The notes below the pieces were generated by a model, which saw only the letters and a program-made list of their open reading frames with translations, made no database searches and had not been told where the DNA came from. A DNA stretch of 64,000 nucleotides from Gammaproteobacteria bacterium (GTDB lineage Bacteria > Pseudomonadota > Gammaproteobacteria > Steroidobacterales > Rariloculaceae): contig DASVCR010000074.1 in NCBI GenBank assembly GCA_036381515.1, positions 6,629-70,628 on the forward strand, given 5' to 3'. Both the position numbers and the translations under genes were made by a program. Of this stretch, positions 30,009 to 45,470 are shown in pieces (position 1 is the first letter of the stretch; each line of letters opens with the position of its first letter).

Positions 30009-30545
30009 TCAAAGTCCGGTCGGAATGTCGACCGGCGCCTCCCTCCGCAGGAATTTCCATTCGCCGTCCTCGCGGATGAATTGGTCATCGTAATGGCCGA
30101 GGAACACGAGTCTCGGCGCGCCATCGTCGCCGGGCGTGACGTACAGCCACAGAGTCCGCGCCGACGCCTGGTCGCCGTCGATCTCGATCTGCTCATTCGT
30201 CAGGATGTGGAACGTCCCGGAGCCTTCCGGGCGCGGGTCGTGGCCGATGGTGTCGTCCATCAGCTTGAAGATCGCGTCCGGGCCTTTCGCCGAGCCGAGG
30301 CCGCCTACCCACTCGCCGTTCGTCGCGAACAGGCCCGCGAGCGTCCGATAGTCGCGATGATCGTGTGCCGTGCCGTACGCGAGGATCAGCGCGCGTATCG
30401 CCTCGCGGTCCTCGAGGATCCGAACGCGCGCGGCGAGCGCTTCGATGTCGGCCGGCGCCGGTGCCGGCTGCTGCGCGTGCGCACTGAGCGTCGACATCGC
30501 CGCGGCGACCGTTACCGCCGCGATTCGGGCAGATCGAGCGGACAT
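30009..30545 (-). CDS. SnoaL-like / NTF2-fold protein with signal peptide
   Basis: RBS GAGGAGGAA. LEDREAIRALILAYGTAHDHRDYRTLAGLFATNGEW is typical of SnoaL_4. Confidence 0.8.
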   Translation of the reverse strand: MSARSARIAAVTVAAAMSTLSAHAQQPAPAPADIEALAARVRILEDREAIRALILAYGTAHDHRDYRTLAGLFATNGEWVGGLGSAKGPDAIFKLMDDTIGHDPRPEGSGTFHILTNEQIEIDGDQASARTLWLYVTPGDDGAPRLVFLGHYDDQFIREDGEWKFLRREAPVDIPTGL

Positions 30546-30783: not shown

Positions 30784-30799
30784 TGGCACACGAATTGCC
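30784..30799 (+). promoter_or_regulatory. Sigma54 (-24/-12) promoter candidate upstream of the transporter operon
   Basis: TGGCACacgaaTTGCC matches the TGGCAC-N5-TTGC consensus with exact GG/GC spacing. It sits about 170 nt upstream of ATG 30971 in a 420-bp lower-G+C intergenic region. Confidence 0.6.
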
Positions 30800-30970
30800 A
30801 TCAAGCCGGAGCCCAGGAAGGGCACGTAACGGCAAGAGGAAGTCAGGGGACTCGAAGGGGACGCATCGCGCGAGCGATGCCGGCGATCCGACCGGGGACG
30901 ATGTCCGCGCCAGCGGGCATCGCAGGGAGATACGACGAATGACAACCGGACGTTTGCGTAGGGGCAGGCG

Positions 30971-31891
30971 ATGGCTGCCGTGATCGTCGCCGACAGCGTC
31001 ACGCACGCGTACAAGGGGGGCACCGTCGCGCTCGACGACGTCAGCCTCGAGATCGGCACCGGCCTCTTCGGCCTGCTCGGCTCGAACGGCGCCGGCAAGA
31101 GCACGTTGATGCGGATCCTCTGCACACTGCTCGTGCCGACGCAGGGCCACGTGACCGTGGACGGGCTCGACGTCGTGGCCGAGCGGCGCAGCGTACGCCG
31201 CCTTCTCGGCTACCTGCCGCAGGAGTGGAGCGCGTGGCGCCTGCAAACGGTCACCGAGGTGCTCGACACGCTCGCCGCGCTTTCCGGCCTCGTGGACAAG
31301 AAGATGCGCAAGCGGCGCATCGCCGAGGTGCTCGACGCGGTCGGCCTCGCGAAGGTCGCGAACCGCAAGGTCAAGCAGCTTTCCGGCGGCATGGTGCGGC
31401 GCCTCGGCGTCGCGCAGGCGCTCGTGCACGAGCCGAAGGTGCTCGTCGTCGACGAGCCGACGGTCGGTCTCGATCCCGAGGAGCGCTTGAGATTCCGTCA
31501 GCTGATGGCCGAGCTCGGCCGCGACCGTGCGATCGTGCTGTCGACGCACATCGTCGCCGATCTCGGCGCCGCGTGTTCCGACCTCGCGGTCCTGCACCGC
31601 GGCAAGGTCGAGTTTCGCGGCTCGCCGGCGGAGCTCGTCCGGCGTGCCGCCGGCAAGGTCGTCGAAATCGCGGTGCCGGAGGCGGCGGAGGCCGACCTCG
31701 CCGAGCGGCTCGAGGTCGTCGCGCGCGAATCGGCGAACGGCCGCGTGTCGCTGCGCGGCGTGATCAAGGACGGGCACGTCCCGGACGGCGCCCGCGCCGT
31801 CGACGACGTGACCCTAGAGGAAGCCTATCTCGCGTTCATGGTCGAGCGCGGCCGTCACATCGACGAGCTCGGCATCGACGACGGCGCGTAA
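30971..31891 (+). CDS. ABC transporter ATP-binding protein (ABC-2 type)
   Basis: Walker A GSNGAGKST, signature LSGGMVRR, Walker B VLVVDEPTVGLD. Confidence 0.95.
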   Translation: MAAVIVADSVTHAYKGGTVALDDVSLEIGTGLFGLLGSNGAGKSTLMRILCTLLVPTQGHVTVDGLDVVAERRSVRRLLGYLPQEWSAWRLQTVTEVLDTLAALSGLVDKKMRKRRIAEVLDAVGLAKVANRKVKQLSGGMVRRLGVAQALVHEPKVLVVDEPTVGLDPEERLRFRQLMAELGRDRAIVLSTHIVADLGAACSDLAVLHRGKVEFRGSPAELVRRAAGKVVEIAVPEAAEADLAERLEVVARESANGRVSLRGVIKDGHVPDGARAVDDVTLEEAYLAFMVERGRHIDELGIDDGA

Positions 31892-31970
31892 GCGCCGAAG
31901 GCTCGACTTTTTCTCGCAACCGGGGAGAACGGCCATCATCAACGTAAGCCACATCCGCACGGTCGCCCGC

Positions 31971-34900
31971 ATGGAAGGGCGGCACACGCGCCGTCTCGTG
32001 CGGTACTGGGTGTTCCTGTCGATCGCGTACCTGCTGGGCATCGTGTCTTACTTCTATTACGGCACGCTGCACGCGCTCTTCTCGTCGATGTCGGCGACCG
32101 TCGGCTTGATCGGTCCCCGCTATCTGATAGGGGCGATCGCGGTCTATTACATCACCGGCTTCGTGCTCGGCATCGTTTTTCTCGGCTTCGACGTACGGGC
32201 ACGCGACGTCCGAGAAGGAATCGTCGAGGTGCTCGATTCCCGGCCGCTGACGAATCTCGAGCTCGTCGCCGGCCGGTTCCTCGCGCTCTTCCTCGCCGGG
32301 TGGGTGCCGATCGTGATCCTCGCGGTCCTGATCCAGGCGCTCGGATGGCTGTTGCCGCTCCTCGGCTCGCCGGTCGGACGCACGGTGGAGCCGCTGTCGC
32401 TCGTCACACTCGCCGTGCTGATGGCCGTGCCCGCGATCGCGTTCGCGATCGCGCTCGTCTTCGTCATCACGCTGCTCGTGCGGCATCGGCTTCTCGCGGC
32501 GCTGATCTCGATCGCCGCGATCGTCGGCGTGTACTGGGCGCTGTTCACGATCCCGGTGATCTACGCGCCGTTCGTCGATTTCCTCGGCATGACGTCGGCG
32601 GGCACGCCGTCGGACATCGTTCCGGTCCTCGCGATGCCGGACGCCGGTGCGCAACGTCTCGGCATCCTCCTGGTCGCGCTCGGGCTCGTCGGCATCGCGG
32701 CCGTGATCCATCCGCGGCTCGACGGGGGCCGCCGCGGGCGGCCCGCGGCAGCGTCGCTCGCGCTCGTGCTCGTGGGCTTCGCGCTGATCGCGATGACGGC
32801 GCAGATGCGCATCGGTCAGGCCGCGCAGATGGAGGCGTGGCGCACCGCTCACGAGGCCCGGCGCGACGAGCCGATCGCCGACATCGTATCGATCGCAGGC
32901 ACGATCGACATCGAACCCGGCCGCGCCGTCCTCGCCGATCTCACCGTCGAGCTCGAGGCGCCGCCCGACCAGTCCTTGAGCCGAGTGCTGCTCACGCTGA
33001 ACCCCGGCCTCGTCGTCGACGACGTGCGCACGGCCGGCGGTGCGACGCTCGCATTCACGCAGCGCGACGGTCTGCTCGACATCGAGCTCGATCGTGCGCT
33101 CGCCGCAGGCGGACGGGCCGCGCTGACGCTCCGCTACGCCGGCAAGCCGGAAACCAGGTTCGCGTATCTCGACTCGGCGATCCGGCTCGAGCAGCTGAAC
33201 GCGAACCAGTCGCAGATCGGGCTTCTCGGCTACGAGCCCGCCGTCTTCGACCGGCGCTATGTCGCGTTGATGCCCGGGATTCACTGGCTGCCGGCTGCGG
33301 GGGTCGACGTCGGCCGCGACGATCCGCGGCACCGGCCGACGGACTATTTCGACGTCGCGCTCGACGTCACGTTGCCGCCGTCATGGCTCGCCGCGGGGCC
33401 CGGCAAGCGGCAGCCCGTGAGCTCGACGGACGACGCGGCCACGTTCCGGTTCGCGCCTGCCGTCAGCGTTCCGGAGGTCGCGCTGGTCGCCGGCGAGCTC
33501 GAGAGCTTCGCAACCGAAATCCGCGGGATCACGTTCGAGGCGCTCGTGCATCCGAGACACGCGGACAACTTCAAGGTGCTCGCCGGCGCTCGTGTGGAGA
33601 TCGAGCAGTGGATCGCGGACCGTCTCGATGCGAGCGCGGACGCCGGGCTCGACTACCCGTTCGATGCGTTTACGGTCGTCGAGGTCCCGAACAGGCTGAG
33701 GGGCTTCGCCGGCGGCTGGCGTCTCGATACGGCGCTCGCGCCGCCCGGCATGATGCTTCTGCGCGAGACGAGCTTCCCGACGGCGCGGTTCGACTTCGAC
33801 GTGCGCACGGTGTTCGGCAACCTCGACCCGGATGCGCAGGAAGGCGGCGCTGCTCGGGTCAACCGCGATCGCGTCGTGGCGTTCTTCAGCAACGACATCG
33901 CCGGCGGCAACGTGTTCACGGGCGCGGCCCGCTCGTTCTTCGCGCACCGCACGTCGGCGGCAGGGCCGGACGCGATCGCGCTCGACTTCGTGCTCGAGGA
34001 GCTCGCGACGCTGCTCGTGTCGGGGCAGCGCGGCTACTTCTCGGCGCATCTCTTCACGAACATCAACCAGGCGACGACCAGCGTCGTGAGCTCGATGCAA
34101 GGCGCGAGCAGCATCGCCGACGCGATGATCACGAGCCGGACCACGCAGCCGGACGTCTGGAACGTCGCGCTCGACGTGCCGCTGTCCGATATCGATCCGT
34201 GGAGCGATCCGCAGCGGACGATCGACCTGCTCGCGCTGAAGGGCGGGGAGATGGCGCAGGCGATTTACGACACGCTCGGCCCGCGCGCCGTCGGCGAGCT
34301 GCTCGCCGCGCTGCTCGAGCGCCGCGCGGGCCGGTCGTTCACGCTCGCCGATCTCGTCGCGGCCGGCGCCGACGTCGACGAGAGCCTCGGCCCGATGCTG
34401 ACCGAATGGGTCGGCGGCACGGGCCTTGCGGGCTTCGTCGCGCAGCGCGTCGAGCTCTATCGGCTGCCCGACGAAGGCAACGGCGACAGCCGCTATCAGC
34501 TCCTCGTGCGCATCGCGAACCCCGAGCCCGTCGTCGGATATGCGCGGGTCGCGTGGACGATGGAGCGCGGCGGGTCGCGCACGTTCGGCGACCCGATCCG
34601 GATCGCCGGCCGCTCGGCGATCGAGTACGGCGTCGTGCTGTCGCAGCCGCCGGCGGTCGTCTACGTGCATCCGTATCTGTCGCTGAACCGCGGCGACTTC
34701 CTCGCCGGGCTCACAGACACCGCGGAGGTCAGGAGCCGGAACGCCGAGCCGTTCAACGGCGTCCGCGACGTGCCGATCGACGAGCTCGCGGACGCGCGCA
34801 TCGTCGCGGACGATCTCGACGAAGGCTTCACGATCGTCGACGACGAGGCCGGCGCCGACATGCGCCTCGCCGGGCGAGGCGGGCCGACGGCCGGCCTCGA

Positions 34901-35405
34901 CAACGGTCTGCCGATCGCGGTGGGCGCGCTCCCGCCGGGCGCATGGAGCCGCAGGGCGAATGAGACGGCCTGGGGCCGGTACCGGCACACGTTCGCCTTC
35001 GTCGGCGCGGGCGAGGGCAAGCGCCGGGCGGTCATGCCGGCGTCGATCCCGACGGCCGGGCTCTGGGAGCTCGAGATTCACCTGCCGTTCGTGCAGATCC
35101 TGCCGGCGCCGAACCGCGGCACGTGGCAGCTCGAGATCGTGACGGCCGACGGGCGTGAGACGGTCAGCTACGATGCGACGGTCGCGAACGTCGGATGGAA
35201 CCTCGTCGGCCGGTTCCAACTCCCGGCCGGCGATGTGCGCGTCGAGATCAGCGACCGGACCGACGGCCGCATGGTGATCGCCGACGCGGTCGGCTGGTCG
35301 CCGGTGAGGGCCGATCGCCCGGCGGACGACACGGGCTCGAGCGAAGCGCTCTCCGACGACGCGCCGAGCGACGCCAACTCGAACGACACGGACTCGACCC
35401 TATGA
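31971..35405 (+). CDS. ABC-2-type permease fused to a very large extracytoplasmic domain
   Basis: 1144 aa. The N-terminal ~300 aa are multi-TM (ABC-2-like). The long soluble region has no HEXXH that I can find. The in-frame upstream peptide AIINVSHIRTVAR looks like the usual permease N-terminus. The true start may therefore be a non-canonical ATC near 31935, preceded by GGGGAGA. Confidence 0.8.
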   Translation: MEGRHTRRLVRYWVFLSIAYLLGIVSYFYYGTLHALFSSMSATVGLIGPRYLIGAIAVYYITGFVLGIVFLGFDVRARDVREGIVEVLDSRPLTNLELVAGRFLALFLAGWVPIVILAVLIQALGWLLPLLGSPVGRTVEPLSLVTLAVLMAVPAIAFAIALVFVITLLVRHRLLAALISIAAIVGVYWALFTIPVIYAPFVDFLGMTSAGTPSDIVPVLAMPDAGAQRLGILLVALGLVGIAAVIHPRLDGGRRGRPAAASLALVLVGFALIAMTAQMRIGQAAQMEAWRTAHEARRDEPIADIVSIAGTIDIEPGRAVLADLTVELEAPPDQSLSRVLLTLNPGLVVDDVRTAGGATLAFTQRDGLLDIELDRALAAGGRAALTLRYAGKPETRFAYLDSAIRLEQLNANQSQIGLLGYEPAVFDRRYVALMPGIHWLPAAGVDVGRDDPRHRPTDYFDVALDVTLPPSWLAAGPGKRQPVSSTDDAATFRFAPAVSVPEVALVAGELESFATEIRGITFEALVHPRHADNFKVLAGARVEIEQWIADRLDASADAGLDYPFDAFTVVEVPNRLRGFAGGWRLDTALAPPGMMLLRETSFPTARFDFDVRTVFGNLDPDAQEGGAARVNRDRVVAFFSNDIAGGNVFTGAARSFFAHRTSAAGPDAIALDFVLEELATLLVSGQRGYFSAHLFTNINQATTSVVSSMQGASSIADAMITSRTTQPDVWNVALDVPLSDIDPWSDPQRTIDLLALKGGEMAQAIYDTLGPRAVGELLAALLERRAGRSFTLADLVAAGADVDESLGPMLTEWVGGTGLAGFVAQRVELYRLPDEGNGDSRYQLLVRIANPEPVVGYARVAWTMERGGSRTFGDPIRIAGRSAIEYGVVLSQPPAVVYVHPYLSLNRGDFLAGLTDTAEVRSRNAEPFNGVRDVPIDELADARIVADDLDEGFTIVDDEAGADMRLAGRGGPTAGLDNGLPIAVGALPPGAWSRRANETAWGRYRHTFAFVGAGEGKRRAVMPASIPTAGLWELEIHLPFVQILPAPNRGTWQLEIVTADGRETVSYDATVANVGWNLVGRFQLPAGDVRVEISDRTDGRMVIADAVGWSPVRADRPADDTGSSEALSDDAPSDANSNDTDSTL

Positions 35406-36490
35406 GCAAGCTCCGCCGGACCCGAAGCAGGATCGCCCCCATCGCCGTCGCGAGCGTGCTCGTCGCCGCTTGCGCGCCGCAGGGCGGCGAGCAAACCGTC
35501 GAGTTCCGCGTGCCGGTCACGGTCGAGGAAGTCGGCGTCGCGACGCTCGAGGACCGCATCGTCACGACCGGCACGCTGCGCACGCCGGAGCTCGTCACGC
35601 TGAGCGCGCTCGACACGGGCGTGCTCGAGATCAATCGCGCGCCGTCCGGGCGCCGCTACGCCGAGGGCGACTTCGTCGCGGCCGGCGAAGAGATCGCGCG
35701 GATCGTCGGCGAGGACGTGCGGATCGCCGCGCGCATGGCGGCCGCGCAGCGCAGCTTCGAGGCCGCGCGCGCCGAGCTCGAGGCGAATCGGGATCTGTTC
35801 CAGCGCGGGCTGATCAACCAGACGGCGCTGAACAGCGTCGCGAGCGCGTTCGAGGACGCGAAGCTCGAGCTCGAGCGCGCGCGCCGCACCGAGGAGCGCA
35901 ACATCCTGATCACGCCGATCGACGGGGTCATCCTGAAGCTCGCGCGCAACGAGGACGGCCAGCTCCTCGCGAACGGCCAGCTCGTGAATCCGAATCAGAT
36001 GATCGCGCAGATCGCGCCGCTCGATCCGCTGATCGCCGACGTCGATCTCGTCGGCCGCGACATCGCCGTGGTGCGCGTCGGGCTCGAGGCGCGCGTCCGC
36101 TATCACGCGTGGCCGCACGAGGAGTTCACGGGCAAGGTGTTGCGGCTCGCGCCGACCGTCGACCCGCGCACGCGAGCGCTGCGCGCCGAGGTCGAGGTCG
36201 GCAACGCCGAGCGCGTGCTGCGCCCCGGGATGTTCGTCGAGGTCGTGCTGATCGGCGAGCGCCGCGAGAACGTGCCCGTCGTGCCCAGGCGCGCACTGAC
36301 CGATCGCGGCGGAAGGCGCGTCGTCTTCGTGCTGCGCGGGCAGCGCGTCGAGCAGCGCGCCGTCGAGATCGGGCTCGGCGACGACGAGTACGTCGAGATC
36401 CGGCAGGGCGTCGAGCCCGGCGACCGCGTCGTCGTCCGCGGCCTCGAGACGCTGACCGACCAGATGCTGGTGCGCGTCACCGGGCCGTGA
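35402..36490 (+). CDS. Efflux RND periplasmic adaptor (membrane fusion protein), lipoprotein
   Basis: The ATG overlaps the upstream stop (ATGA). Lipobox ASVLVAAC. It has HlyD/MFP-type coiled-coil and beta-barrel motifs (ITPIDGVILKL..., RPGMFVEVVL). Confidence 0.9.
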   Translation: MSKLRRTRSRIAPIAVASVLVAACAPQGGEQTVEFRVPVTVEEVGVATLEDRIVTTGTLRTPELVTLSALDTGVLEINRAPSGRRYAEGDFVAAGEEIARIVGEDVRIAARMAAAQRSFEAARAELEANRDLFQRGLINQTALNSVASAFEDAKLELERARRTEERNILITPIDGVILKLARNEDGQLLANGQLVNPNQMIAQIAPLDPLIADVDLVGRDIAVVRVGLEARVRYHAWPHEEFTGKVLRLAPTVDPRTRALRAEVEVGNAERVLRPGMFVEVVLIGERRENVPVVPRRALTDRGGRRVVFVLRGQRVEQRAVEIGLGDDEYVEIRQGVEPGDRVVVRGLETLTDQMLVRVTGP

Positions 36491-36494
36491 GAAC

Positions 36495-36578
36495 AAAAAT
36501 CGTGTCAGACACATTTTCGCACCGGAAATTGTGTCAGACACCTTTTTCCGGCGGAAAAAGGCGTCTGACACGACTTCC
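36495..36578. repeat. REP-like cluster (three copies, two forming a hairpin) inside the operon between the MFP and RND genes
   Basis: aaaaatcgtgtcagacacatttt; gaaattgtgtcagacaccttttt-ccggcgg-aaaaaggcgtctgacacgacttcc. Confidence 0.85.
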
Positions 36579-36587
36579 GCGACACTC

Positions 36588-39500
36588 ATGTCCGAAGCGC
36601 TAGCCCGCATCGCCGTCCGCCGCCCCGTCGCCGTCACCGTGCTCGCCGCCGCGATCGTCGTGCTCGGCTGGGTCTCGTGGCGCGGGCTGCCGCTCGATCT
36701 CCTGCCGGACATCGAGAGCCCGACCGTGCTCGTGTCGGTCACCGCCGGCGAGCGTCCCGCGATCGAGATGGAGCGGCTCTACGGTGAGCGCATCGAGCAG
36801 CTGCTCTTCACGGTGCGCGGCTTGCGAGGCATCGACCAGATCGCACGCACGGGCGAGCTGATCACGCGCGTGACGTTCGACTGGGACGCCGACATCGATC
36901 TCGCGCTCGTCGACGTCAACAAGGCCGTCGCGCCGATCGCCGCGGATACCGACGTCGACGAGGTCCGCGTGCGGCGCTTCGATCCGCGGCAGCTGCCGGT
37001 GCTCGTGCTCGGGCTCGTGCCGGCCGACGGGCGGCAGATGGACCTCGCGGAGCTGCGCCGCATCGCCGAGCGCCGGATCGCGCCGGGCCTCGAGCAGCTG
37101 CGCGGCGTCGCGGAGGTCCGGGTCACCGGCGGACGCGAGAAGCAGGTCGAGGTGCGCCTCGACCGCACGCGCCTCGACGCGTACGGCCTCACGATCGACG
37201 AGGTCCGGAGCCGCATCAGCGCGACGAACGCCGACGTGAACGCGGGCACGCTCGTGCAGGGCGATCGCGTGTACCTCGTGCGCGGCCTGTCGCGCTTCAC
37301 CGGCCCCGACGACGTCGCGAGGACGGTCGTGCGCTACGAGGAAACGGCCTCGCAGGGCACCGTGCCGATTCACGTCGCCGATCTCGGCGAGGTCGTGCTC
37401 GCCGACGCCGAGATCACGCACGTCGTGCGCGTCGACGGCGTCGAAGGCGTCGGGCTCTCGATATACAAGGAGGCCGGCGCGAACACCGTCGAGATCTCGC
37501 GGCTCGTGCGCGATGCGCTCGAGCGTCTTGCCACGGACCTGCCCGGGATCGACGTCAGGACGGTCGCGGACGAGGCCGCGCTGATCGAGGACGCGATCGC
37601 CGACGTCGAAAGCGCCGCGCTCCTCGGCATCGCGCTCGCGGTCGCGGTGCTCTTCGTGTTCCTGCGCAGCCCCGGGCCGATCCTCGTCGTCGCCACCGCG
37701 ATCCCGGTCTCGCTGCTCGCGACCGTGTTCGCGATGGGCCTCGCGGGCCACAGCCTGAACCTGATGACGCTCGGCGGCCTCGCGCTCGGCGCCGGCATGC
37801 TCGTCGACAACGCCATCGTGGTGATGGAGAGCATCTTCAGGCGGCGCGCGCAAGGCGACGCGCCGGCCGACGCGGCCGCGAAGGGAACGGGCCTCGTCGG
37901 CGGCGCGATCGTCGCGAGCACGCTGACGACGTGCGTCGTGTTTCTGCCCGTCGTGCTGATCGAGGGGATGGCCGCACGGCTCGTCGGCGGCATCGCGTTC
38001 ACGGTCGTGATGTCGCTCCTCGTGTCGCTCGCCGTCGCGGTCGCGCTGATCCCGGCGCTCGCGGCGTGGCTCCTGCCCCGCGAGCGCACGCGCGACGTCG
38101 ATCCGGGCAACTCGCGCGTCGAGGCGGTCGTCTATGCGCTGCTCGGCCGGCCGTGGACGGTCGTCGGATGCGCGGCCGTGCTCTCCGCCGTCGCGGCCGC
38201 ATCGCTGTGGCGGCTCGGGACGGAGCTCTTGCCGCCGGCCGATCCGCGGCAGTTCAGCGTGCGCATCGTCGGGCCGCCCGGACAGCGGGTTGAGTCTACG
38301 GTCGAGACAGTCTCCGTCGTCGAAGCCGTGCTCGCGGAGGCCGCCGGGGAGGATCTCCGCGCGATGCTGTCCGAGGTCGGCCGGCTGCCGAACGACGACC
38401 GTCTGATTCGCGAGCAGCAGACCGAGGAGAACACGGCGGAGATCAGGCTCCTGCTCGCGGCCGGCGGGCAGGGCGGCAGCACGGTCGTGCAGAAGGCCGT
38501 GCCGGTCGTCGCCGGGCTCAATGGCGTCGAGGCATCGTGGGAGGTCGGAAGCTCCGCGCTGTCGCGCGCGCTCGGCACGGCCGGGCCGCCGATCGTCGTC
38601 GAGATCGCCGGCGACTCGATCGAGGACCTCCGCAGCGCCGCGGAGCACGTGCGCGAGCGGCTCGCGGCGGTGCCCGAGCTCTGGAACGTGCAGACGTCGT
38701 TCGAAGGCGCGCCGCCCGAGATGCGCATCACGCTGAAGCGGGCGCTCGCGGACGGCCTCGGCGTCGACCTCGACGCGGTCGGCGCCGTGCTCGAGGCGTC
38801 GCTCGACGGGCTCGACGCGACGACGCTGACGATCGGCGACGAGGAATACGACGTCGTGCTGCGACTGCCCGTCGCCGATCCTGACACGTTGCTCGCGCTG
38901 CCGCTCAGCACGCGCGACGGTCATCGCGTCACGGTCGGCGACGTGGCCCGGCTCGACCAGGTCGAGGGCGCGCGCGAGATCGTAAGGCGCGATCAACGGC
39001 GCATCGCGCGCGTCACGGCGCGGATCGCACCCGGCGTGACGGCGCCCGAAGCGCGTGCCGCGGCGCTCGCCGCCGTCGCGGCGGCGGATCTGCCGCCGGG
39101 CCTCTCGGCCGAGCTCGCCGGCGAGGAGCGCGAGCGCGCGCGCACGACCGAGGAGCTCGGCTTTGCGGCGGCGCTCGCGTTGCTGCTCGTGTTCATGGTC
39201 CTCGCCGGCACGTTCGAGTCGCTGCTCCATCCGGTCACCGTCCTTGCGGCGATTCCGCTGTCGTTGATCGGCGTCGCGCTCGTGCTCGTGCCGGCCGGCG
39301 CGCCGATCGGCGTCATGGCGATGCTCGGCCTGATCGTGCTCGCGGGCATTGCCGTCAACGATGCGATCCTGCTCGCCGATGCGGCGAAGCGGCAGATCGA
39401 CGATGGCGTCGAGCGTCGGCGCGCGCTCGCTCGCGCGGCGTCGATACGCCTGCGGCCGATCATTATGACGACGGCGACGACGGTGCTTGCGCTCGTGCCG

Positions 39501-39659
39501 CTCGCGCTCGGGACCGGCGAGGCGGCGCAGCTGCGCGCGCCGCTCGCGCTGACGGTCATCGGCGGGCTCACGGCGTCGACGCTCGGCTCGCTGTTCGTGA
39601 TCCCGTGCGTCTATCTCGTGCTCGACCGGATCGGCTTCCGATCCCGCCGGGCGACGTAG
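36588..39659 (+). CDS. RND efflux transporter permease (AcrB/HAE-type)
   Basis: ORF 36531..39659. ATG 36588 gives MSEALARIAVRRPVAVTVLAAAIVVLGWVSWRGLPLDLLPDIESPTVLVSV, a canonical RND N-terminus. It is about 1020 aa with 12-TM architecture. Confidence 0.92.
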   Translation: MSEALARIAVRRPVAVTVLAAAIVVLGWVSWRGLPLDLLPDIESPTVLVSVTAGERPAIEMERLYGERIEQLLFTVRGLRGIDQIARTGELITRVTFDWDADIDLALVDVNKAVAPIAADTDVDEVRVRRFDPRQLPVLVLGLVPADGRQMDLAELRRIAERRIAPGLEQLRGVAEVRVTGGREKQVEVRLDRTRLDAYGLTIDEVRSRISATNADVNAGTLVQGDRVYLVRGLSRFTGPDDVARTVVRYEETASQGTVPIHVADLGEVVLADAEITHVVRVDGVEGVGLSIYKEAGANTVEISRLVRDALERLATDLPGIDVRTVADEAALIEDAIADVESAALLGIALAVAVLFVFLRSPGPILVVATAIPVSLLATVFAMGLAGHSLNLMTLGGLALGAGMLVDNAIVVMESIFRRRAQGDAPADAAAKGTGLVGGAIVASTLTTCVVFLPVVLIEGMAARLVGGIAFTVVMSLLVSLAVAVALIPALAAWLLPRERTRDVDPGNSRVEAVVYALLGRPWTVVGCAAVLSAVAAASLWRLGTELLPPADPRQFSVRIVGPPGQRVESTVETVSVVEAVLAEAAGEDLRAMLSEVGRLPNDDRLIREQQTEENTAEIRLLLAAGGQGGSTVVQKAVPVVAGLNGVEASWEVGSSALSRALGTAGPPIVVEIAGDSIEDLRSAAEHVRERLAAVPELWNVQTSFEGAPPEMRITLKRALADGLGVDLDAVGAVLEASLDGLDATTLTIGDEEYDVVLRLPVADPDTLLALPLSTRDGHRVTVGDVARLDQVEGAREIVRRDQRRIARVTARIAPGVTAPEARAAALAAVAAADLPPGLSAELAGEERERARTTEELGFAAALALLLVFMVLAGTFESLLHPVTVLAAIPLSLIGVALVLVPAGAPIGVMAMLGLIVLAGIAVNDAILLADAAKRQIDDGVERRRALARAASIRLRPIIMTTATTVLALVPLALGTGEAAQLRAPLALTVIGGLTASTLGSLFVIPCVYLVLDRIGFRSRRAT

Positions 39660-39667
39660 GTCCGACC

Positions 39668-42600
39668 GTGGTGCTCGACCTCGTCGCGCTGCCCGTTCGC
39701 CGGCCTACCGCGACGGCGATGTTCTTCCTCGCGCTCGTGATGCTCGGGCTCTTCGCGTGGTACCGGATACCGATCGAGCTGATGCCGGCGCTCCGCGGCG
39801 AGCAGCTCGTCGTGTCGTTCGTGCGTCCGGGGTCCGAGCCCGAGGTCGTCGAGCGCGAGATCCTGCTGCCGCTCGAGGCGCGCGTCGGCGAGCTGCCGGG
39901 GCTCACCGAGACGTGGGGCGAGGTGAACGGCGCGAGCGGCCGTCTGCAGCTCCAGTTCGAGCGCGGCACGAACATCCGCGTGCGCGAGCTCGAGCTCAAC
40001 AGCATCGCGGCGGAGCTCGCGCGCACGCAGCCGGAAGGCACGTTCATCAACGTCTCGTCGCAGGACCTGACGGCGTTCAGCCGCTTCGCGATGATCATCC
40101 ACGTGACCGGGGGCGCCGATCCGAACGCGTTGCGCGATCTCGTCGAGCAGCGGATCGAGCCGCGGGTCGCCGCGGTCCCCGGCGTGAGTCAGGTGCTTGC
40201 GACGGGCGGCGCGCCGCGCGAGGTCACCGTGTGGATCGACCCGGAGCGCTGCGCGGCGCTCGGCATCCGTCCCGAGACGGTCACGGCGCTGCTCGGCCGG
40301 TCCGTGCAGCGGCTGCGCTTTCTCGGCGGCACCGAGCGCGACGGCCGCCGCTGGCAGGTCACGCTCGACGGGCGCCCCGGCGGCGTCGCATCGCTCGGCG
40401 AGCTCAGGATCGATCCCGCGCGGCCGGTGCTCTTGCGCCACGTCGCCGACATCGAGATGACGACCGCGCGCGCCGACAGCGCGTTCCGGATCAACGGCGC
40501 CGACGCGACGGGGCTCATCGTCTTTCAGGAGGAGGGCGAGAACCTCGTGCGGCTCGGCCGCGCGCTGCGCGAGCGGGTCGAGGAGCTCCGCGCGGAGTGG
40601 GCGCCGTACGGCGTCGATTTCCGGATCGGCTTCGACGCGGCCGAGACCGTCGAGGAGCAGCTCGATCGGCTGAAGCAGCTCGCGCTGTCGGGCTTCGTGA
40701 TCGCGCTCGCCGTGCTCTACCTGTTCCTGCGCGAGCTGCGCGCGGTCGCGGTCGTCGCCGTCGCCGTGCCGATGAGCCTGCTCATCGCGGGCGCGATGCT
40801 CTATCTCGGCGGCTACACGCTGAATCTCGTCACGCTGCTTGGTCTCGCCGTCGGCATCGGCATGCTCGTCGACAACAGCATCGTCGTCTTCGAGGCCGTG
40901 CAGCGGTTCCTCGAGCGCGGGCTCTCGGCGGAGTCCGCTGCAATCGCGGGCATCAGGCGCACCGTCCGCGCGATCGTCGCGGCGAGCGCGACGAACGCCG
41001 TCGTGTTCCTGCCGGCCGTGTTCCTCGTCGACGACAGCTTCATCCGCGGCGCGCTCGAGCTCGTCGCGATCGCGATCCTGCTGCCGCTCTTCGCGTCGCT
41101 CGTCGTCGCGGTCGGCTTCGTGCCGCTCCTGGCCGAGAAGTTCGCGGCGCCTGCTGCGGCCGCGCGCCTCGCGCGGCGGGCCGATTGGCGGCGGGAGCAC
41201 GGCGGCAAGCCGCCGCCGCAACGTGCCCGGGCGCTCCTGTCCGCGATCCTGAAATCCGCGTTGCGGCGGCCCGCGCCTTGGCTCGTCGCCGTCACGGTGT
41301 CGATCGTGCTGACGATCGTGATCGCGTTGCCGTGGGTGCTCGTCGGCAGCCTCGCGCAGCAGGCCGAGCAGGCCGACCAGGTCAGCCTCGAGATCGAGCT
41401 CGCCGGGAGCCGATCGCTCGACGCGGCGACCTCCGTCTTCGCGCGGATCGAGCAGGCGGTGCTCGGCCTCGACGGGATCGAGCTCGTCGAGAGCTCGTTC
41501 CAGGAGGTCGGCGGCACGCTGACCGTGCACCTCGATCCCGCCGCACGCGACGCGGGCGGCGCAACGGCCGGGCGCGTCCGCGAAGAGGTGCGCAAGGCCG
41601 TCGAAGGCCTCGACGGCGTCGAGCTCCGGACGATGACTCTCGACGGCACCGGCGGGGGATCGGGCGACGAACGCAACGGCGGCGGGGGCGGCGCGCTCGG
41701 CGGGTCCGCGTCCGAGGTGCGCGTGTCCGGACCGGACATGGTGCAGATCAACCTGATCGCGCGCGAGATCCAGTCGCGGCTCGAGTCGATCCCCGACGTC
41801 GAGGAGGCGTGGATCTCGGGCGGCACGGGCCAGGACGAGCTGCGCGTCGAGCCGCTGGCCGCCGCGCTCGCCGCATATCGGCTCAATCCGGAGGACGTGC
41901 TGAACGCGCTGAACGTGTTCCGGCGCGAGGGCGTACAGCTCCAGGTCGGGTTCACGCTCGCCGACGGGCGCGAGCTGCCGCTGACCGTGCGTCGGCCCGA
42001 CGTCGTCGCGTACGACGCGCTCGCGTCGATCGACGCGCTCCGGCTCGCGACGGACGAAGGCGTCGTGCCGTTCGGCGTCGTGACGACGGGCAGCCGCGTG
42101 CCGGCGCCGCCCGCGATCGCGCATCACAATGGCCGGCGCGAGCTTTCGGTGAGCTACAGCCTCGGCAGCTCGGCGCCGGAGCAGGGGCCCGAGCGCCTGC
42201 GGCTCGAGTCGGCAATCGAAGAGGCGGTGCGCACCGTTTACCGGCCCTCGGGGTACACGGTCGAGTCGGTCGTCGACGAGGGCACGGATTGGTTCAGGCT
42301 CGTCTTCGTGCCGGTGCTCCTGCTGCTCTACGCCGTGCTCGCGATCACGTTCGAGTCGTTCACGCTGCCGATCCTCGTGCTCGTCGCCGTGCCGCTGACC
42401 GTGCTCGGCGCGACGTGGTCGCTCGTGCTCGCCGGCGTAGGCGCCGGCATCTACGCGCTCGTCGGCGTGATCGCGCTGCTCGGGCTCACGGTGAATCCCG
42501 CAATCCTGCTCGTCGACCGCATGCAGCAGCGCGTGCTCGGGAGCGGCTCGAGCGGCGGCGCGGCCGCGATCGCCGCGGTGCGCGAGCGCACGCGGCCCGT

Positions 42601-44431
42601 GCTGATGACGAGCGCGACGACGATCGCGGGCTTGTGGCCGCTCGCGCTGTCGACCGGCCAGGAGCTCGAGATCTGGCCGCCGTTCGCGACCGTCGTGATG
42701 GGCGGCCTCGCGACGTCGACCGTGCTGACGCTCGTCGTCATTCCGGTCGGCTTCGTGCTGCTGACGCGCATCGACCGGATCTTCGGCAAGCTCGGTCCGT
42801 GGATCGTGCTCGGCTGGATCGCGGCGACGGCGGCGGTCGTCGCGCCGCTGATCGTCACGGATCGCTTGAACGCGCTCGGCTGGCAGATCACGACGACCGT
42901 GCTCGTCGCCGCAGCGCTCCTGTGGCTCGCGCTCGCGATCTTCCACCGGGCGCCGAAGCTCGCGTTCGATCCCGCCGCGACGGCGATCGAGGCCCGCTAC
43001 CTCGCGAAGGTGTACGGCAGGCCAGGATCGGTCAAGCGCGCGTGGCGGCTCGGCCGCGACGGCGGCCGCGACGGCGGTGCGTCCGCCGCGCGCACGCGGC
43101 GCGACGCGGGCGAGCGCGCGCTGACGTTCACCATGCTCTTCGCGGGCGCGCTCTATCTCGCGACGCACCTGGGCTCGATGCCGTGGCGGCTCGTCTTCGC
43201 GTACATCGCGGCGGCGTTCGCGGCGCGTGCGGTGATCGAGCTCCGCCTCGCGGTGCTGCCGCCGCGCGAGGAGGCGCGCGACGCACGGATCGCCCGCGGC
43301 CTCACGTTCGATGCGATCGTTCCGACGCTCGCGCCGTGGATCATGCTCGCGGCGCTCGCGGTCGCGTACATGGTGCTGCCGGCCATCGACGGCACGCGCC
43401 AGGCGCTGCCGCCGGTCGCCGTCGTCGTGCTCGCCGGGCTCACGCTGATCGTGCAGCTCGGCCGCCGGACCGCGCGCCGCGCCGCGGGTGCGGCCGCGGC
43501 GGGCGCGCCGGCGGACGTCGGCCGCGTGCGCGCCGCGTGGCGGCAGGCGTGTCTCGCGGTATTCGGTCTCGACCTCCCGCGCGCCGAGATCGAGGCGCTC
43601 GCGACGACGAGCTTCGCGGCGAAGCAAGGCATGATCGGCATCCTCGGTCCGAACGGCGCCGGCAAGACGACGCTGCTCCGGATGCTTGCGGGCGTGCTCG
43701 ATCCGACCGCGGGCGCGATCCACTACAGCGGTCTGCCGAAGCGCCGCGTCGGCGGCTACGTGAGCCGCTGGGTCGGCTATCTGCCGCAGGAGTTCGGTCT
43801 GCCGAATCACCTGACCGCGCGCGAGTATCTCGACTACTTCGCGCTGCTCTACGAGGTCGGGGACCGGCAGGAGCGGCGCGAGCGCGTCGACGCGCTGCTC
43901 GCCGAGGTCGGTCTCGACGAACGCAAGGACGAGAAGATCGGCGCGTACTCGGGCGGCATGCGGCAGCGCGTCGCCGTCGCGCGCACGTTGCTCCGTCATC
44001 CGCCGATCATCATCGTCGACGAGCCGACGGTCGGGCTCGATCCGCGCGAGCGGATCCGTTTCCGGAACCTGCTCTCGCGGCTCGCCGAAGGGCGCGTCGT
44101 GCTGTTCTCGACGCACGTCGTCGAGGACGTCGCCGTGTCGTGCCGGCGGGTCATCGTGATGAGCCGCGGCCGGATCGTCTACGACGGCGCGCCTGCGGAC
44201 CTCGCGGGGCTCGCGGCGGGGAAGACGTGGGAGATCCGCCTGGCGGCCGGCGAGCACGTCGAGCTCCCGCGATCGTGCAAGGTCGTCGATCAGGTGCCCG
44301 ACGCGGGCGGCGGCGTGCGCATGCGCGTGCTGTCCGCGACGCAGCCGCATCCGGCGGCGAAGGCGATCGAGCCCGTGATCGAGGACGGCTATCTCGAGCT
44401 CGTGACGCGAGGAGGCGAGCGCGATGCGTGA
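39668..44431 (+). CDS. RND efflux permease fused in frame to extra TM helices and a C-terminal ABC ATPase domain
   Basis: ORF 39605..44431. GTG 39668 follows the upstream stop at 39659. The RND N-terminus is LPVRRPTATAMFFLALVMLGLFAWYRIPIELMP, and the RND body runs to about 42790. Hydrophobic segments follow. The NBD has GPNGAGKTT (about 43646-43672), YSGGMRQR (about 43949) and IIIVDEPTVGLD (about 44005-44030). No stop or frame change interrupts the ORF. Confidence 0.85.
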   Translation: MVLDLVALPVRRPTATAMFFLALVMLGLFAWYRIPIELMPALRGEQLVVSFVRPGSEPEVVEREILLPLEARVGELPGLTETWGEVNGASGRLQLQFERGTNIRVRELELNSIAAELARTQPEGTFINVSSQDLTAFSRFAMIIHVTGGADPNALRDLVEQRIEPRVAAVPGVSQVLATGGAPREVTVWIDPERCAALGIRPETVTALLGRSVQRLRFLGGTERDGRRWQVTLDGRPGGVASLGELRIDPARPVLLRHVADIEMTTARADSAFRINGADATGLIVFQEEGENLVRLGRALRERVEELRAEWAPYGVDFRIGFDAAETVEEQLDRLKQLALSGFVIALAVLYLFLRELRAVAVVAVAVPMSLLIAGAMLYLGGYTLNLVTLLGLAVGIGMLVDNSIVVFEAVQRFLERGLSAESAAIAGIRRTVRAIVAASATNAVVFLPAVFLVDDSFIRGALELVAIAILLPLFASLVVAVGFVPLLAEKFAAPAAAARLARRADWRREHGGKPPPQRARALLSAILKSALRRPAPWLVAVTVSIVLTIVIALPWVLVGSLAQQAEQADQVSLEIELAGSRSLDAATSVFARIEQAVLGLDGIELVESSFQEVGGTLTVHLDPAARDAGGATAGRVREEVRKAVEGLDGVELRTMTLDGTGGGSGDERNGGGGGALGGSASEVRVSGPDMVQINLIAREIQSRLESIPDVEEAWISGGTGQDELRVEPLAAALAAYRLNPEDVLNALNVFRREGVQLQVGFTLADGRELPLTVRRPDVVAYDALASIDALRLATDEGVVPFGVVTTGSRVPAPPAIAHHNGRRELSVSYSLGSSAPEQGPERLRLESAIEEAVRTVYRPSGYTVESVVDEGTDWFRLVFVPVLLLLYAVLAITFESFTLPILVLVAVPLTVLGATWSLVLAGVGAGIYALVGVIALLGLTVNPAILLVDRMQQRVLGSGSSGGAAAIAAVRERTRPVLMTSATTIAGLWPLALSTGQELEIWPPFATVVMGGLATSTVLTLVVIPVGFVLLTRIDRIFGKLGPWIVLGWIAATAAVVAPLIVTDRLNALGWQITTTVLVAAALLWLALAIFHRAPKLAFDPAATAIEARYLAKVYGRPGSVKRAWRLGRDGGRDGGASAARTRRDAGERALTFTMLFAGALYLATHLGSMPWRLVFAYIAAAFAARAVIELRLAVLPPREEARDARIARGLTFDAIVPTLAPWIMLAALAVAYMVLPAIDGTRQALPPVAVVVLAGLTLIVQLGRRTARRAAGAAAAGAPADVGRVRAAWRQACLAVFGLDLPRAEIEALATTSFAAKQGMIGILGPNGAGKTTLLRMLAGVLDPTAGAIHYSGLPKRRVGGYVSRWVGYLPQEFGLPNHLTAREYLDYFALLYEVGDRQERRERVDALLAEVGLDERKDEKIGAYSGGMRQRVAVARTLLRHPPIIIVDEPTVGLDPRERIRFRNLLSRLAEGRVVLFSTHVVEDVAVSCRRVIVMSRGRIVYDGAPADLAGLAAGKTWEIRLAAGEHVELPRSCKVVDQVPDAGGGVRMRVLSATQPHPAAKAIEPVIEDGYLELVTRGGERDA

Positions 44432-45206
44432 GCATGCGACGAAGGCGGGCGCGTCCGTGCGCGCGAGCGGGCTCCGCGCCGCGGCGGCGAGGGCCGCGGC
44501 CGCTGCGGTCGATGCGGCGCTGCTGCTCCGGCTGTCGCTGCGGCTCCAGCTCGGCAAGCGCTTCCTCGCCGTGCCGCTGCTCGCGCTCCTGTGGCCCGCG
44601 TACCAGGCGTTGACGCTCGTCGTCGGGTGGCGCGCCGAGAGCTTCGATGCGAGCGACGCGCAGAACGCGCTGATCGGCTTTCCGCTCGCCGTGCTTGGCA
44701 TCGGGCTCGGCGTGCGCATCATCGCGGGCGAGATCGAGCAGCGGACGCTCGAGGTTACGTACACGGTCCCGGGCGGCGCGGCGCGGGTCTGGATCTCGAA
44801 GCTCGCGGCCGCGGCGGCGGCGCTGCTTGCCGCGGAGGCGCTCCTCGGGATCGTGACGGCGTTGTTCTTCACGCCCTATCCGCCGAGCGCGCTCTACGGC
44901 GCGTTCCAAAGTGCGGTGTTCTATCTCGCCGCCGCAGCGGGGCTCGGCGCGCTCCTGCGGAGCGAGATCACGGCCGCGCTCGTCGCGGGCGTGCTGCTCA
45001 CCGCGAACGGTTTCCTGACCGGGTTCGGCGGCGCACCGAGCCGCTGGTCGCCGTTCTTCAATCCGCTCGCGGTCGACGAAGCGAGCGCTGCCGACGTGCT
45101 GGCGTGGACGGTGCAGAACCGCATCGGCGTCGCGCTCGCGACCGCGGCGCTCGTCGCGCTGTCGTGTGCTCGGGCGGAACGGCGGGAGAAGCTGCTCAGG
45201 GTGTGA
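44424..45206 (+). CDS. ABC-2-type transporter permease
   Basis: The ATG overlaps the upstream stop (8-nt overlap). 260 aa, multi-TM, with GEIEQRTLEV as the typical ABC-2 motif. Confidence 0.8.
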   Translation: MREHATKAGASVRASGLRAAAARAAAAAVDAALLLRLSLRLQLGKRFLAVPLLALLWPAYQALTLVVGWRAESFDASDAQNALIGFPLAVLGIGLGVRIIAGEIEQRTLEVTYTVPGGAARVWISKLAAAAAALLAAEALLGIVTALFFTPYPPSALYGAFQSAVFYLAAAAGLGALLRSEITAALVAGVLLTANGFLTGFGGAPSRWSPFFNPLAVDEASAADVLAWTVQNRIGVALATAALVALSCARAERREKLLRV

Positions 45207-45220
45207 GGCGATGAGCGACA

Positions 45221-45366
45221 CAAAAATCGTCGGCACGAAAATCGTGTCCACAAAAATCGTGTCAGACACCTTTTTCGGCGAGGTCCGTTCGATATCCCGA
45301 CCCCTTCGGCCGAAAAAGGTGTCTGACACGATTTTTCCGAGAAAAAGGGTGTCTGACACGATTTTT
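45221..45366. repeat. REP-like cluster: degenerate direct partial copies, then a long nested hairpin and a further inverted copy
   Basis: caaaaatcgtcggcac, gaaaatcgtgtccac and aaaaatcgtgtcagacaccttttt (45252-45275). Then aaaaaggtgtctgacacgattttt (45313-45336) and aaaaagggtgtctgacacgattttt (45342-45366). Confidence 0.85.
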
Positions 45367-45470
45367 GTCCGGAATGCAGAACCGCTGCGAAGTCAGGATC
45401 GTCGCGTGACTTCGCGCGGACGGCTGCCGATAATTTCGAGCGCCCGGCTTGGGGCGGGAGGTGAGTAACG

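Follow-up and report, generated by a model that had tools for sequence, protein, structure and literature searches.

A conserved six-gene module with an RND permease fused to an ABC ATPase: a candidate hybrid export machine of the bacterial envelope

The stretch of DNA analysed here (hereafter the window; 64,000 nt, positions 6,629 to 70,628 of contig DASVCR010000074.1, assembly GCA_036381515.1, from a gammaproteobacterium of the Rariloculaceae) holds a run of six genes, named A to F in order of transcription, the fifth of which joins a resistance-nodulation-division (RND) permease and an ATP-binding cassette (ABC) ATPase in a single reading frame. The remaining products are an ABC ATPase (A, ATPase-1), a giant ABC-2 permease (B), a lipoprotein membrane-fusion protein (C, MFP), a second RND permease (D, RND-1; the fused one is RND-2) and a small ABC-2 permease (F). 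An earlier note, made from the sequence alone, had given these identities to six genes of one strand, and they are confirmed by Pfam and NCBIfam. We propose that the locus encodes a tripartite exporter of the RND type into which ABC-2 modules are hard-wired and which would operate as a two-step relay, a reading to which we give a probability of about one half. The fusion of RND-2 with a nucleotide-binding domain (NBD) is itself genuine.

In the window, whose G+C content is ~70%, a filter on codon-position G+C yields a single unbroken gene run on the + strand (30962-45206). Read in the frame of gene E, third codon positions have a G+C content of 0.88-0.98 all the way from the RND body across the linker (0.93-0.97) into the NBD, which excludes non-coding read-through and a change of frame. 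The 1587-aa fusion product of the window is on record in the protein database, where the family numbers at least 748 proteins, ~1580 aa long and identical in Pfam content. A scan of a genome collection confirmed the architecture at 575 of the 598 genome stretches examined, and the best 80 of these loci, cited below by L numbers, were fetched for locus comparison. An alignment of 18 diverse fusion proteins gives a mean column identity of 66%; the catalytic motifs of the fused NBD (GPNGAGKTT, Q-loop, SGG, Walker B DE and H-loop) are all invariant, and the linker of ~250 residues has conserved Trp, Pro and Gln positions as well as the invariant residues K1114, Y1116 and G1120.

The AlphaFold2 (AF2) model of the last 575 residues of E (pLDDT 85.7) predicts, after transmembrane (TM) helix 12 of the RND body, two TM helices, a 10-residue beta-strand, four long helices and then a canonical NBD with its regulatory domain. 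In the numbering of the modelled piece, the linker helices span residues 32-51, 58-80, 132-155, 159-184, 194-229 and 237-266, and the strand 95-104; along the DNA, the linker holds TM13-14, a conserved strand motif RYLxKVYGxPGP at 42986-43015 and a four-TM insertion at ~43097-43501. We read the four helices as an insertion that splits strand beta1 of the NBD from beta2, because the strand motif resembles the N-terminal beta1 strand of ATPase-1 (VTHAYKGG) and because NBD homology in the NCBIfam models opens only at beta2, the pairing of the strands being deduced from DSSP and the motif. With 12 + 6 = 18 TM helices, the NBD would be cytoplasmic. A phmmer search against 1.84 billion representatives returned family members or their fragments only, and hence no relative of the linker outside the fusion family. 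The possibility that the linker is a degenerate ABC-2 transmembrane domain (TMD) was rejected, since hhalign comparisons with F and with the TM domain of B yielded probabilities of ~1%.

The best Foldseek matches of the fused NBD are TM_1403 (4yer), NosF (7osf, 7o0y) and ABCA7, all ABC-2-type ATPases with regulatory domains. The fused NBD and ATPase-1 are mutual closest paralogues in the genome and are 39% identical over 276 residues, a span that includes the C-terminal extension and so bears out the similarity of the two extensions that had been noticed before. None of the NCBIfam equivalog cut-offs is reached by the fused NBD (GldA 174 bits, cut-off 403). ABC-2 systems have a contiguous NBD, either separate or on its own TMD, whereas in E the NBD is attached to an RND permease and has an apparently displaced beta1 strand. 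ATPase-1 likewise stays under all equivalog cut-offs, DrrA and GldA included (GldA 194 bits, cut-off 403), and its Walker A, LSGG, Walker B DE and H-loop motifs are canonical in 47-49 of 49 orthologues. Both NBDs thus carry the motif set of a catalytically competent ABC NBD and are predicted to be active. A search for GldF and GldG partners gave no matches, so that the locus does not correspond to a GldA/GldF/GldG gliding-motility system.

The sole direct Pfam match of permease B is Golvesin_C, near the C-terminus of the window protein; among 16 orthologues, Golvesin_C is detected in 14 and an ABC2_membrane domain (PF12698 or PF12679) in six. The AF2 model of permease B (pLDDT 82.9, pTM 0.80) has seven TM helices, a domain with the fold of M1 aminopeptidases and a C-terminal beta-sandwich corresponding to Golvesin_C. 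Seven TM helices with a basic N-terminus inside would place ~850 residues in the periplasm. The periplasmic part matches IRAP, ERAP1, APN and the Deinococcus M1 enzyme (5mj6, 3qnf, 6a8z) in Foldseek with E 3e-18 and probability 1.0; there is no Peptidase_M1 Pfam match in B or its orthologues, and all 16 lack both HExxH and GxMEN, which is why we regard this ectodomain as a pseudo-peptidase and not as an M1 zinc aminopeptidase. A conserved FxNDxSGGN motif lies, judged by eye only, at the position of the zinc-binding helix. It is a guess that the peptidase-like fold implies a peptide-like ligand. In two Candidatus Azotimanducaceae genomes of 3.2-3.7 Mb (L075 and L078; OZ242170.1 and OZ241909.1), ~20 full-length paralogues of permease B are found in each, 24-35% identical to B and several of them in tandem, a large expansion of the family, where the genome of the window has one copy.

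Permease F is weakly matched in the window protein; 18 of its 23 orthologues match ABC2_membrane_2 (PF12679; best E 1e-8), and F aligns with the TM domain of permease B in hhalign (E 2e-4). Both F and B thus provide what an ABC-2 system contains, a membrane subunit of the ABC2_membrane clan adjoining an NBD. Neither has an FtsX or MacB_PCD match in Pfam, and the MacB/FtsX type VII class is not indicated. Since the fused NBD belongs to the ABC-2/NosF/ABCA type, F, as an ABC-2 permease, would be its natural TMD partner. A separate observation concerns Acidobacteriota (L032, L035, L038, L041-L043, L051, L053, L059-L061 and L065; Multivorans and Thermoanaerobaculia genomes), in which one to three extra F paralogues are located 0.5-4 kb 3' of the module.

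Both RND proteins are full-length members of their superfamily by the ACR_tran model (RND-1, 2-1020 of 1021, E 2e-198; RND-2, 3-1020 of 1021, E 4e-144), and they are 28% identical to each other. RND-1 scores 560 bits with RND_permease_2 (cut-off 1250). The MdtB and MdtC models give 361 and 333 bits for RND-1, and 215 and 223 bits for RND-2, far from the cut-offs of 1774 and 1584. The relay residues were read from an alignment to E. coli AcrB that included 62 RND-1 and 78 RND-2 orthologues. At the positions of D407 and D408 (TM4), K940 (TM10), N941, R971 and T978 (both TM11), RND-1 has D, N, N, D, R and T, and RND-2 has D, N, N, P, R and T, with the respective patterns present in 61-62 of 62 and 77-78 of 78 orthologues. 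A stand-alone RND paralogue of the same genome (C5:48080) also carries N/N at 408 and 940, and two other RNDs are of the classical DD/K type. Since a stand-alone RND has the same pair, the alignment identifies N/N as a subfamily trait, which gives no evidence for ATP having replaced the proton gradient. The idea that RND-2 had lost its proton relay, with ATP taking over from the proton-motive force, was accordingly dropped, RND-1 and C5:48080 sharing the pair and the equivalents of D407, R971 and T978 being kept. The phenylalanines of the AcrB drug pocket are not conserved in RND-1 or RND-2. The second periplasmic loop of RND-2 contains, in all orthologues, a glycine-rich segment of variable length (GTGGGSGDERNGGGGGALGG; 41690-41770, residues ~675-700) that is without counterpart in RND-1 or AcrB.

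The adaptor scores 180 bits with TIGR01730 (RND_mfp; cut-off 95), matches HlyD_D23 and has a lipobox (LVAAC). It aligns to AcrA throughout and retains the alpha-hairpin expected of an RND_mfp adaptor in a tripartite system, ~14 residues shorter. The absence of a gene for an outer-membrane factor (OMF, such as TolC) from the window had been noticed at the outset and extends to the entire contig (C74), on which no PF02321 gene is found; the genome has ~9 elsewhere. In 9-10 loci of a Desulfobacterota clade, an OMF gene (OEP, PF02321, 5e-44; 560 aa) lies 4-200 nt 3' of gene F, directly following it in L005, L007, L010, L012, L013, L016, L017, L018 and L022. These linked OMFs were found by clustering the flanking open reading frames (ORFs) and then applying Pfam; tblastn with eight OMFs of the window's own genome had been blank in the 80 loci, a failure of sensitivity, and the notion that the system consistently lacks an OMF was discarded. 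Because the OMF gene directly follows F in this clade, its absence is a trait of the locus in the window's lineage and not of the system, and in the Desulfobacterota clade the module consists of seven genes, its own OMF included. By analogy, the pump of the window's lineage, if tripartite, must rely on an unlinked OMF, an arrangement common among RND pumps. The previous proposal of a single envelope-spanning machine gains indirect support on two counts, the retained alpha-hairpin of the MFP and the OMF after F in 9-10 loci; the lipid, polymer or large substrate proposed with it, in place of a drug, is conjecture.

Synteny was counted by tblastn with the six window proteins, over loci with enough flanking sequence. 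Genes A to E are collinear in 49 of 58 loci and C-D-E in 55 of 60, while E and F are adjacent in 67 of 70. Conserved synteny had been set beforehand as the test capable of refuting a single unit, and it is what we observe: the order A-B-C-D-E-F is maintained across phyla, gene boundaries overlap or are separated by a few bases even in distant ones, the fusion is conserved, and the flanking genes are not. Among the 80 loci, the genes flanking the module in the window recur only in the closest relative (L003), so that the six genes travel as a unit; none of these flanking genes names a substrate, and the flank clusters that recur in relatives are clade-specific. The synteny clearly favours the view that the six genes form one functional unit. 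In the tree of E, the exceptions are confined to particular clades. In one Pseudomonadales/Azotimanducaceae clade, E and F occur without the other genes beside them, and a cluster of B to D lies elsewhere on the chromosome; in Candidatus Multivorans a second RND::NBD copy (L045 and L049) stands by itself, with no A-D on its 5' side and no F on its 3' side, in the same genome as a complete module (L059). The correlation of identity between components is positive and too coarse to be used.

The module occurs in soil, sediment, marine and sponge-associated bacteria and in hundreds of species-level genomes. Its hosts include, among Gammaproteobacteria, uncultured members, Pseudohongiellaceae, Pseudomonadales, Azotimanducaceae and Microbulbifer sp. 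TYP-18; among Acidobacteriota, Thermoanaerobaculia, Vicinamibacterales, Holophagae and strain Mor1; and also Desulfobacterota and others. Three of 10 species in the same genus carry it, as does one genome of a further 15 in the family; none of 16 in the order has it, nor does any of 200 genomes sampled from the same class. In the tree of E, members of different phyla intermingle. This pattern fits an accessory module spread partly by horizontal transfer, with paralogy and mis-binned contigs as caveats. A tblastn search of plasmids with RND-1 gave generic RND matches only, at 30% identity or less. Two loci labelled 'Bacteroides sp. SM23_62' (L010 and L017) nest in the Desulfobacteraceae clade with branch lengths below 0.08 to L013, which suggests a mis-binned or mislabelled metagenome-assembled genome and not a Bacteroides gene. 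Genes for SurA-like chaperones with peptidyl-prolyl isomerase (PPIase) domains (SurA_N + Rotamase) lie just 5' of the module in 4-5 Desulfatiglans-type loci, for instance L016:497-1447 on the - strand. At least two hosts, Microbulbifer sp. TYP-18 and Acidobacteria bacterium Mor1, appear to be isolates and not metagenome bins, which makes direct testing feasible.

We propose that RND-1 and RND-2 form a heteromer that, together with the lipoprotein adaptor and an OMF, would constitute a tripartite conduit to which two ABC-2 modules are attached. The first module would be hard-wired, its NBD being carried on RND-2 by way of six extra TM helices and most likely paired with permease F; the second would consist of ATPase-1 and permease B, whose dead M1-like domain in the periplasm is probably a substrate-binding or mechanotransducing arm. 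It can be hypothesised that the ATP-driven ABC-2 modules shift a substrate across the inner membrane, or extract it from there, and pass it to the proton-driven RND pump, which would eject it through the adaptor and the OMF. An ABC engine requires an obligatory dimer of NBDs. By analogy with MdtB2C, a (RND-2)2(RND-1)1 trimer would supply exactly two of them, and would also explain why there are two RND paralogues, of which one is fused. Physical assembly, stoichiometry, energy coupling and direction of transport are what we infer from the sequences. Several points weigh against this proposal. The symmetry of an RND trimer and that of an ABC dimer are reconciled only by assuming the 2:1 heterotrimer. 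The replacement of the AcrB D408/K940 ion pair by N/N in both RNDs means that proton coupling is assumed for them. Linkage of an OMF is limited to one clade, and the solitary E of L045 and L049, together with the extra F paralogues of several Acidobacteriota, suggests that the parts list is not fixed.

The foremost alternative, which we consider unlikely, is a pump of dual energy, in which a dimer of fused NBDs drives or gates the RND cycle, in the boldest form that of a heterotrimer, through the six-TM linker, combining ATP with the proton gradient, and F is an accessory or stabilising subunit. A covalent fusion whose length and topology do not vary between phyla is consistent with this scheme, as is an orphan six-TM element in which Trp, Pro and Gln residues are conserved and which has no relatives beyond the family; four TM helices inside the NBD would pass its closure to the membrane beside TM12 of the RND, and RND-2 is without the extra Asp in TM10 (N-P at 940/941, where RND-1 has N-D). 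However, an ABC-2 permease nearly always adjoins the NBD, which is of an ordinary ABC-2 type, and the conventional pairing of NBD and TMD is simpler; moreover, RND-2 keeps the equivalents of D407, R971 and T978. The scheme has no precedent either: to our knowledge, no transporter class is known in which primary and secondary active transport are coupled in one engine.

Ranking just behind it, and likewise doubtful, is a machine for envelope biogenesis or maintenance and not for small-molecule efflux, which would handle a lipid, lipoprotein, lipopeptide or surface polymer with the pseudo-peptidase of B as chaperone or receptor. The ~850 periplasmic residues of B, with a dead M1 fold and a beta-sandwich, invite comparison with the mechanotransmitting ABC systems Lol, Lpt, NosDFY and MacB, and the NBDs resemble NosF and ABCA. 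The missing AcrB drug-pocket phenylalanines would also agree with such a role, although the pocket residues of RNDs vary widely in true drug pumps too. The SurA-like genes 5' of the Desulfatiglans-type loci point in the same direction, yet the module has no conserved biosynthetic or substrate gene as a neighbour. The patchy distribution may be taken as that of an accessory trait, but patchiness within a single genus (three of 10 species) argues against a core envelope function.

Far less probable is the view that the locus holds three independent, co-regulated transporters (A/B, C/D/E and NBD/F) with the fusion as a neutral tether. Every part does resemble a self-sufficient known system, some lineages split A-D from E-F, and E is solitary in L045 and L049; against this, a neutral fusion with conserved linker residues would not persist in at least 575 loci across phyla, gene order and translational coupling are maintained, and the genomes with a split module keep both halves. 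That the frame of RND-2::NBD is an artefact of frameshift, mis-assembly or read-through of a stop-free G+C-rich stretch is practically untenable: the region does contain spurious ORFs of more than 1600 aa in its other frames, but codon-position G+C follows the fusion frame throughout the linker, TM helices are predicted there with confidence, and hundreds of orthologues in independent assemblies share the architecture.

At the level of the locus (Table 1), the three gene junctions that had been quoted earlier are exact in the sequence: the start of C overlaps the stop of B in ATGA (35402-35405), a gap GTCCGACC (39660-39667) separates D from the GTG start of E at 39668, and E and F overlap by the 8 nt ATGCGTGA (44424-44431). 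Copies of an element resembling repetitive extragenic palindromes (REP), AAAATCGTGTCAGACAC and its complement, fill the spacer between the MFP and RND-1 genes and build the hairpin cluster 3' of gene F. Since GTG 36531, the start of the longest ORF of gene D, sits within a REP copy, ATG 36588 (MSEALARIAVRRP…) is the more likely start of RND-1, giving a protein of ~1023 aa and therefore a 97-nt REP-filled spacer 3' of the MFP gene. This spacer (36491-36587) is lineage-specific and lies outside the conserved module. The true start of permease B is probably upstream of ATG 31971 and non-canonical: orthologue conservation (…IAxAExRxTRRLxRYW) extends in frame 5' of this codon (…HIRTVARMEGRHTRRL), and the closest upstream candidates are ATC 31935 and ATC 31938, 8-11 nt past GGGGAG.

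A candidate promoter is given by a perfect sigma54-type motif (TGGCAC-N5-TTGC) 187 nt 5' of the start codon of ATPase-1. The same class of motif precedes gene A only in L003, L004, L005 and L007, all from Gamma- and Deltaproteobacteria, out of ~55 loci; it was ruled out as a feature of the whole family, though its frequency is far above the background of 0.004 per 350 nt. The genome encodes ~14 enhancer-binding proteins, none of them in the window. Consensus scans found no internal promoter or terminator signals above background within the operon, and a sigma70-like site (45406-45434) lies 5' of nfeD. Between a hydrolase gene and the promoter region of the operon, a divergent gene on the - strand (30009-30545) encodes 178 aa with a signal peptide, has a GGAGGA ribosome-binding site and is kept solely in the closest relative, L003.

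Table 1. Positions in the window of the module genes and of associated sequence elements
Feature	Positions	Strand	Basis
Sigma54-type motif TGGCACacgaaTTGC	30784-30798	+	Sequence reading
Gene A: ABC ATPase-1, 306 aa; ABC-2/DrrA/GldA-like NBD with C-terminal regulatory extension	30971-31891	+	PF00005, 3e-30
Gene B: giant ABC-2 permease, 1144 aa	31971-35405	+	Pfam, AF2, Foldseek
Gene C: lipoprotein membrane-fusion (periplasmic adaptor) protein MFP, 362 aa	35402-36490	+	TIGR01730, HlyD_D23
REP-like repeat spacer (AAAATCGTGTCAGACAC copies), MFP/RND-1 interval	36491-36587	.	Sequence reading
Gene D: RND-1 permease	36531-39659 (longest ORF)	+	ACR_tran, full-length
Gene E: RND-2 fused to ABC ATPase, 1587 aa	39668-44431	+	ACR_tran + ABC_tran, one frame
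Gene E, part 1: RND-2 body, residues 1-1054	39668-42829	+	ACR_tran
Gene E, part 2: six-TM linker	42830-43588	+	Third-position G+C, AF2, alignment
Gene E, part 3: ABC NBD with C-terminal regulatory domain	43589-44431	+	PF00005, 6e-29
Gene F: small ABC-2 permease, 260 aa	44424-45206	+	ABC2_membrane_2 in orthologues
REP-like hairpin cluster closing the operon, 5' of nfeD	45221-45366	.	Sequence reading

Tripartite pumps of the envelope are classed by their inner-membrane engine, ABC, RND or MFS, and these are treated as alternatives (PMC8277102). Neither an RND-ABC fusion nor this operon is described in the full-text literature searched, a scope that leaves out most subscription-journal papers, or in a 2021 Chem Rev review of tripartite systems. 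The components are familiar from that literature, which contains no description of the covalent RND-ABC hybrid, of the split NBD or of the fixed module. In this locus, RND and ABC, taught as alternative engines, appear to be combined in a single machine for export. The module would, if its parts assemble as proposed, define as new elements a large ABC-2 permease family whose M1-peptidase ectodomains are dead and an NBD interrupted by membrane helices, and offer a rationale for heteromeric RND trimers, with two NBDs per trimer; were the dual-energy scheme true, ATP and the proton-motive force would be combined in one pump.

Among known systems, the module as a whole comes closest to MdtABC-TolC, a heteromeric RND pump; its ABC parts are nearest to ABC-2/NosF-type systems, and the ectodomain of B to M1 aminopeptidases. 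Like MuxABC-OpmB, MdtABC-TolC is a tripartite pump with two paralogous RND subunits, arranged in an MdtB2C heterotrimer (PMC8277102, PMC7015380). The module shares with it a lipoprotein adaptor gene followed by two adjacent genes for paralogous full-length RNDs and an OMF that is often unlinked, and, once the generic RND models are set aside, the MdtB and MdtC models give some of the best equivalog matches. It differs in scoring far under the MdtB and MdtC cut-offs (333-361 against 1584-1774 bits), in the six extra TM helices and ABC NBD borne by RND-2, in the low identity of its two RNDs (28%), in the two ABC-2 sets that flank the pump and in the change of D408/K940 to N/N.

MacAB-TolC, a type VII ABC system, is similar in that its inner-membrane component is driven by ATP, has a large periplasmic domain and works with an MFP and an OMF, and the idea of mechanotransmission could extend to permease B. 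In MacB there are an N-terminal NBD, four TM helices, a periplasmic domain between TM1 and TM2 and the FtsX fold, whereas the permeases of the module are of the ABC-2 type, the periplasmic domain of B comes after TM7 with an M1-peptidase fold, and an RND pump is also present. The fold of NBD and regulatory domain and the ABC-2 membrane partner are those of type V systems (NosDFY, with NosF; TM_1403; ABCA), and in NosDFY the hydrolysis of ATP serves a periplasmic partner domain. However, the module has no homologues of NosD, NosY or NosL, its NBD is fused to an RND permease and apparently broken by a four-TM insertion, and NCBIfam scores remain under the equivalog cut-offs. With the M1 zinc aminopeptidases (APN, ERAP1, IRAP and the Deinococcus enzyme), the periplasmic part of B shares a multi-domain fold, but it lacks the HExxH-E zinc site and GxMEN and is fused to a seven-TM ABC-2 permease.

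The functional parallel is with two-step efflux, in which single-component pumps of the inner membrane cooperate with tripartite RND pumps (PMC4338810): one transporter delivers the substrate to the periplasm or the outer leaflet, and the RND pump carries it out across the outer membrane. The known partners are separate, unlinked proteins, whereas the stages of the module would be covalently joined and co-inherited, so that the system, if its parts assemble as proposed, would show the hard-wiring of two-step efflux.

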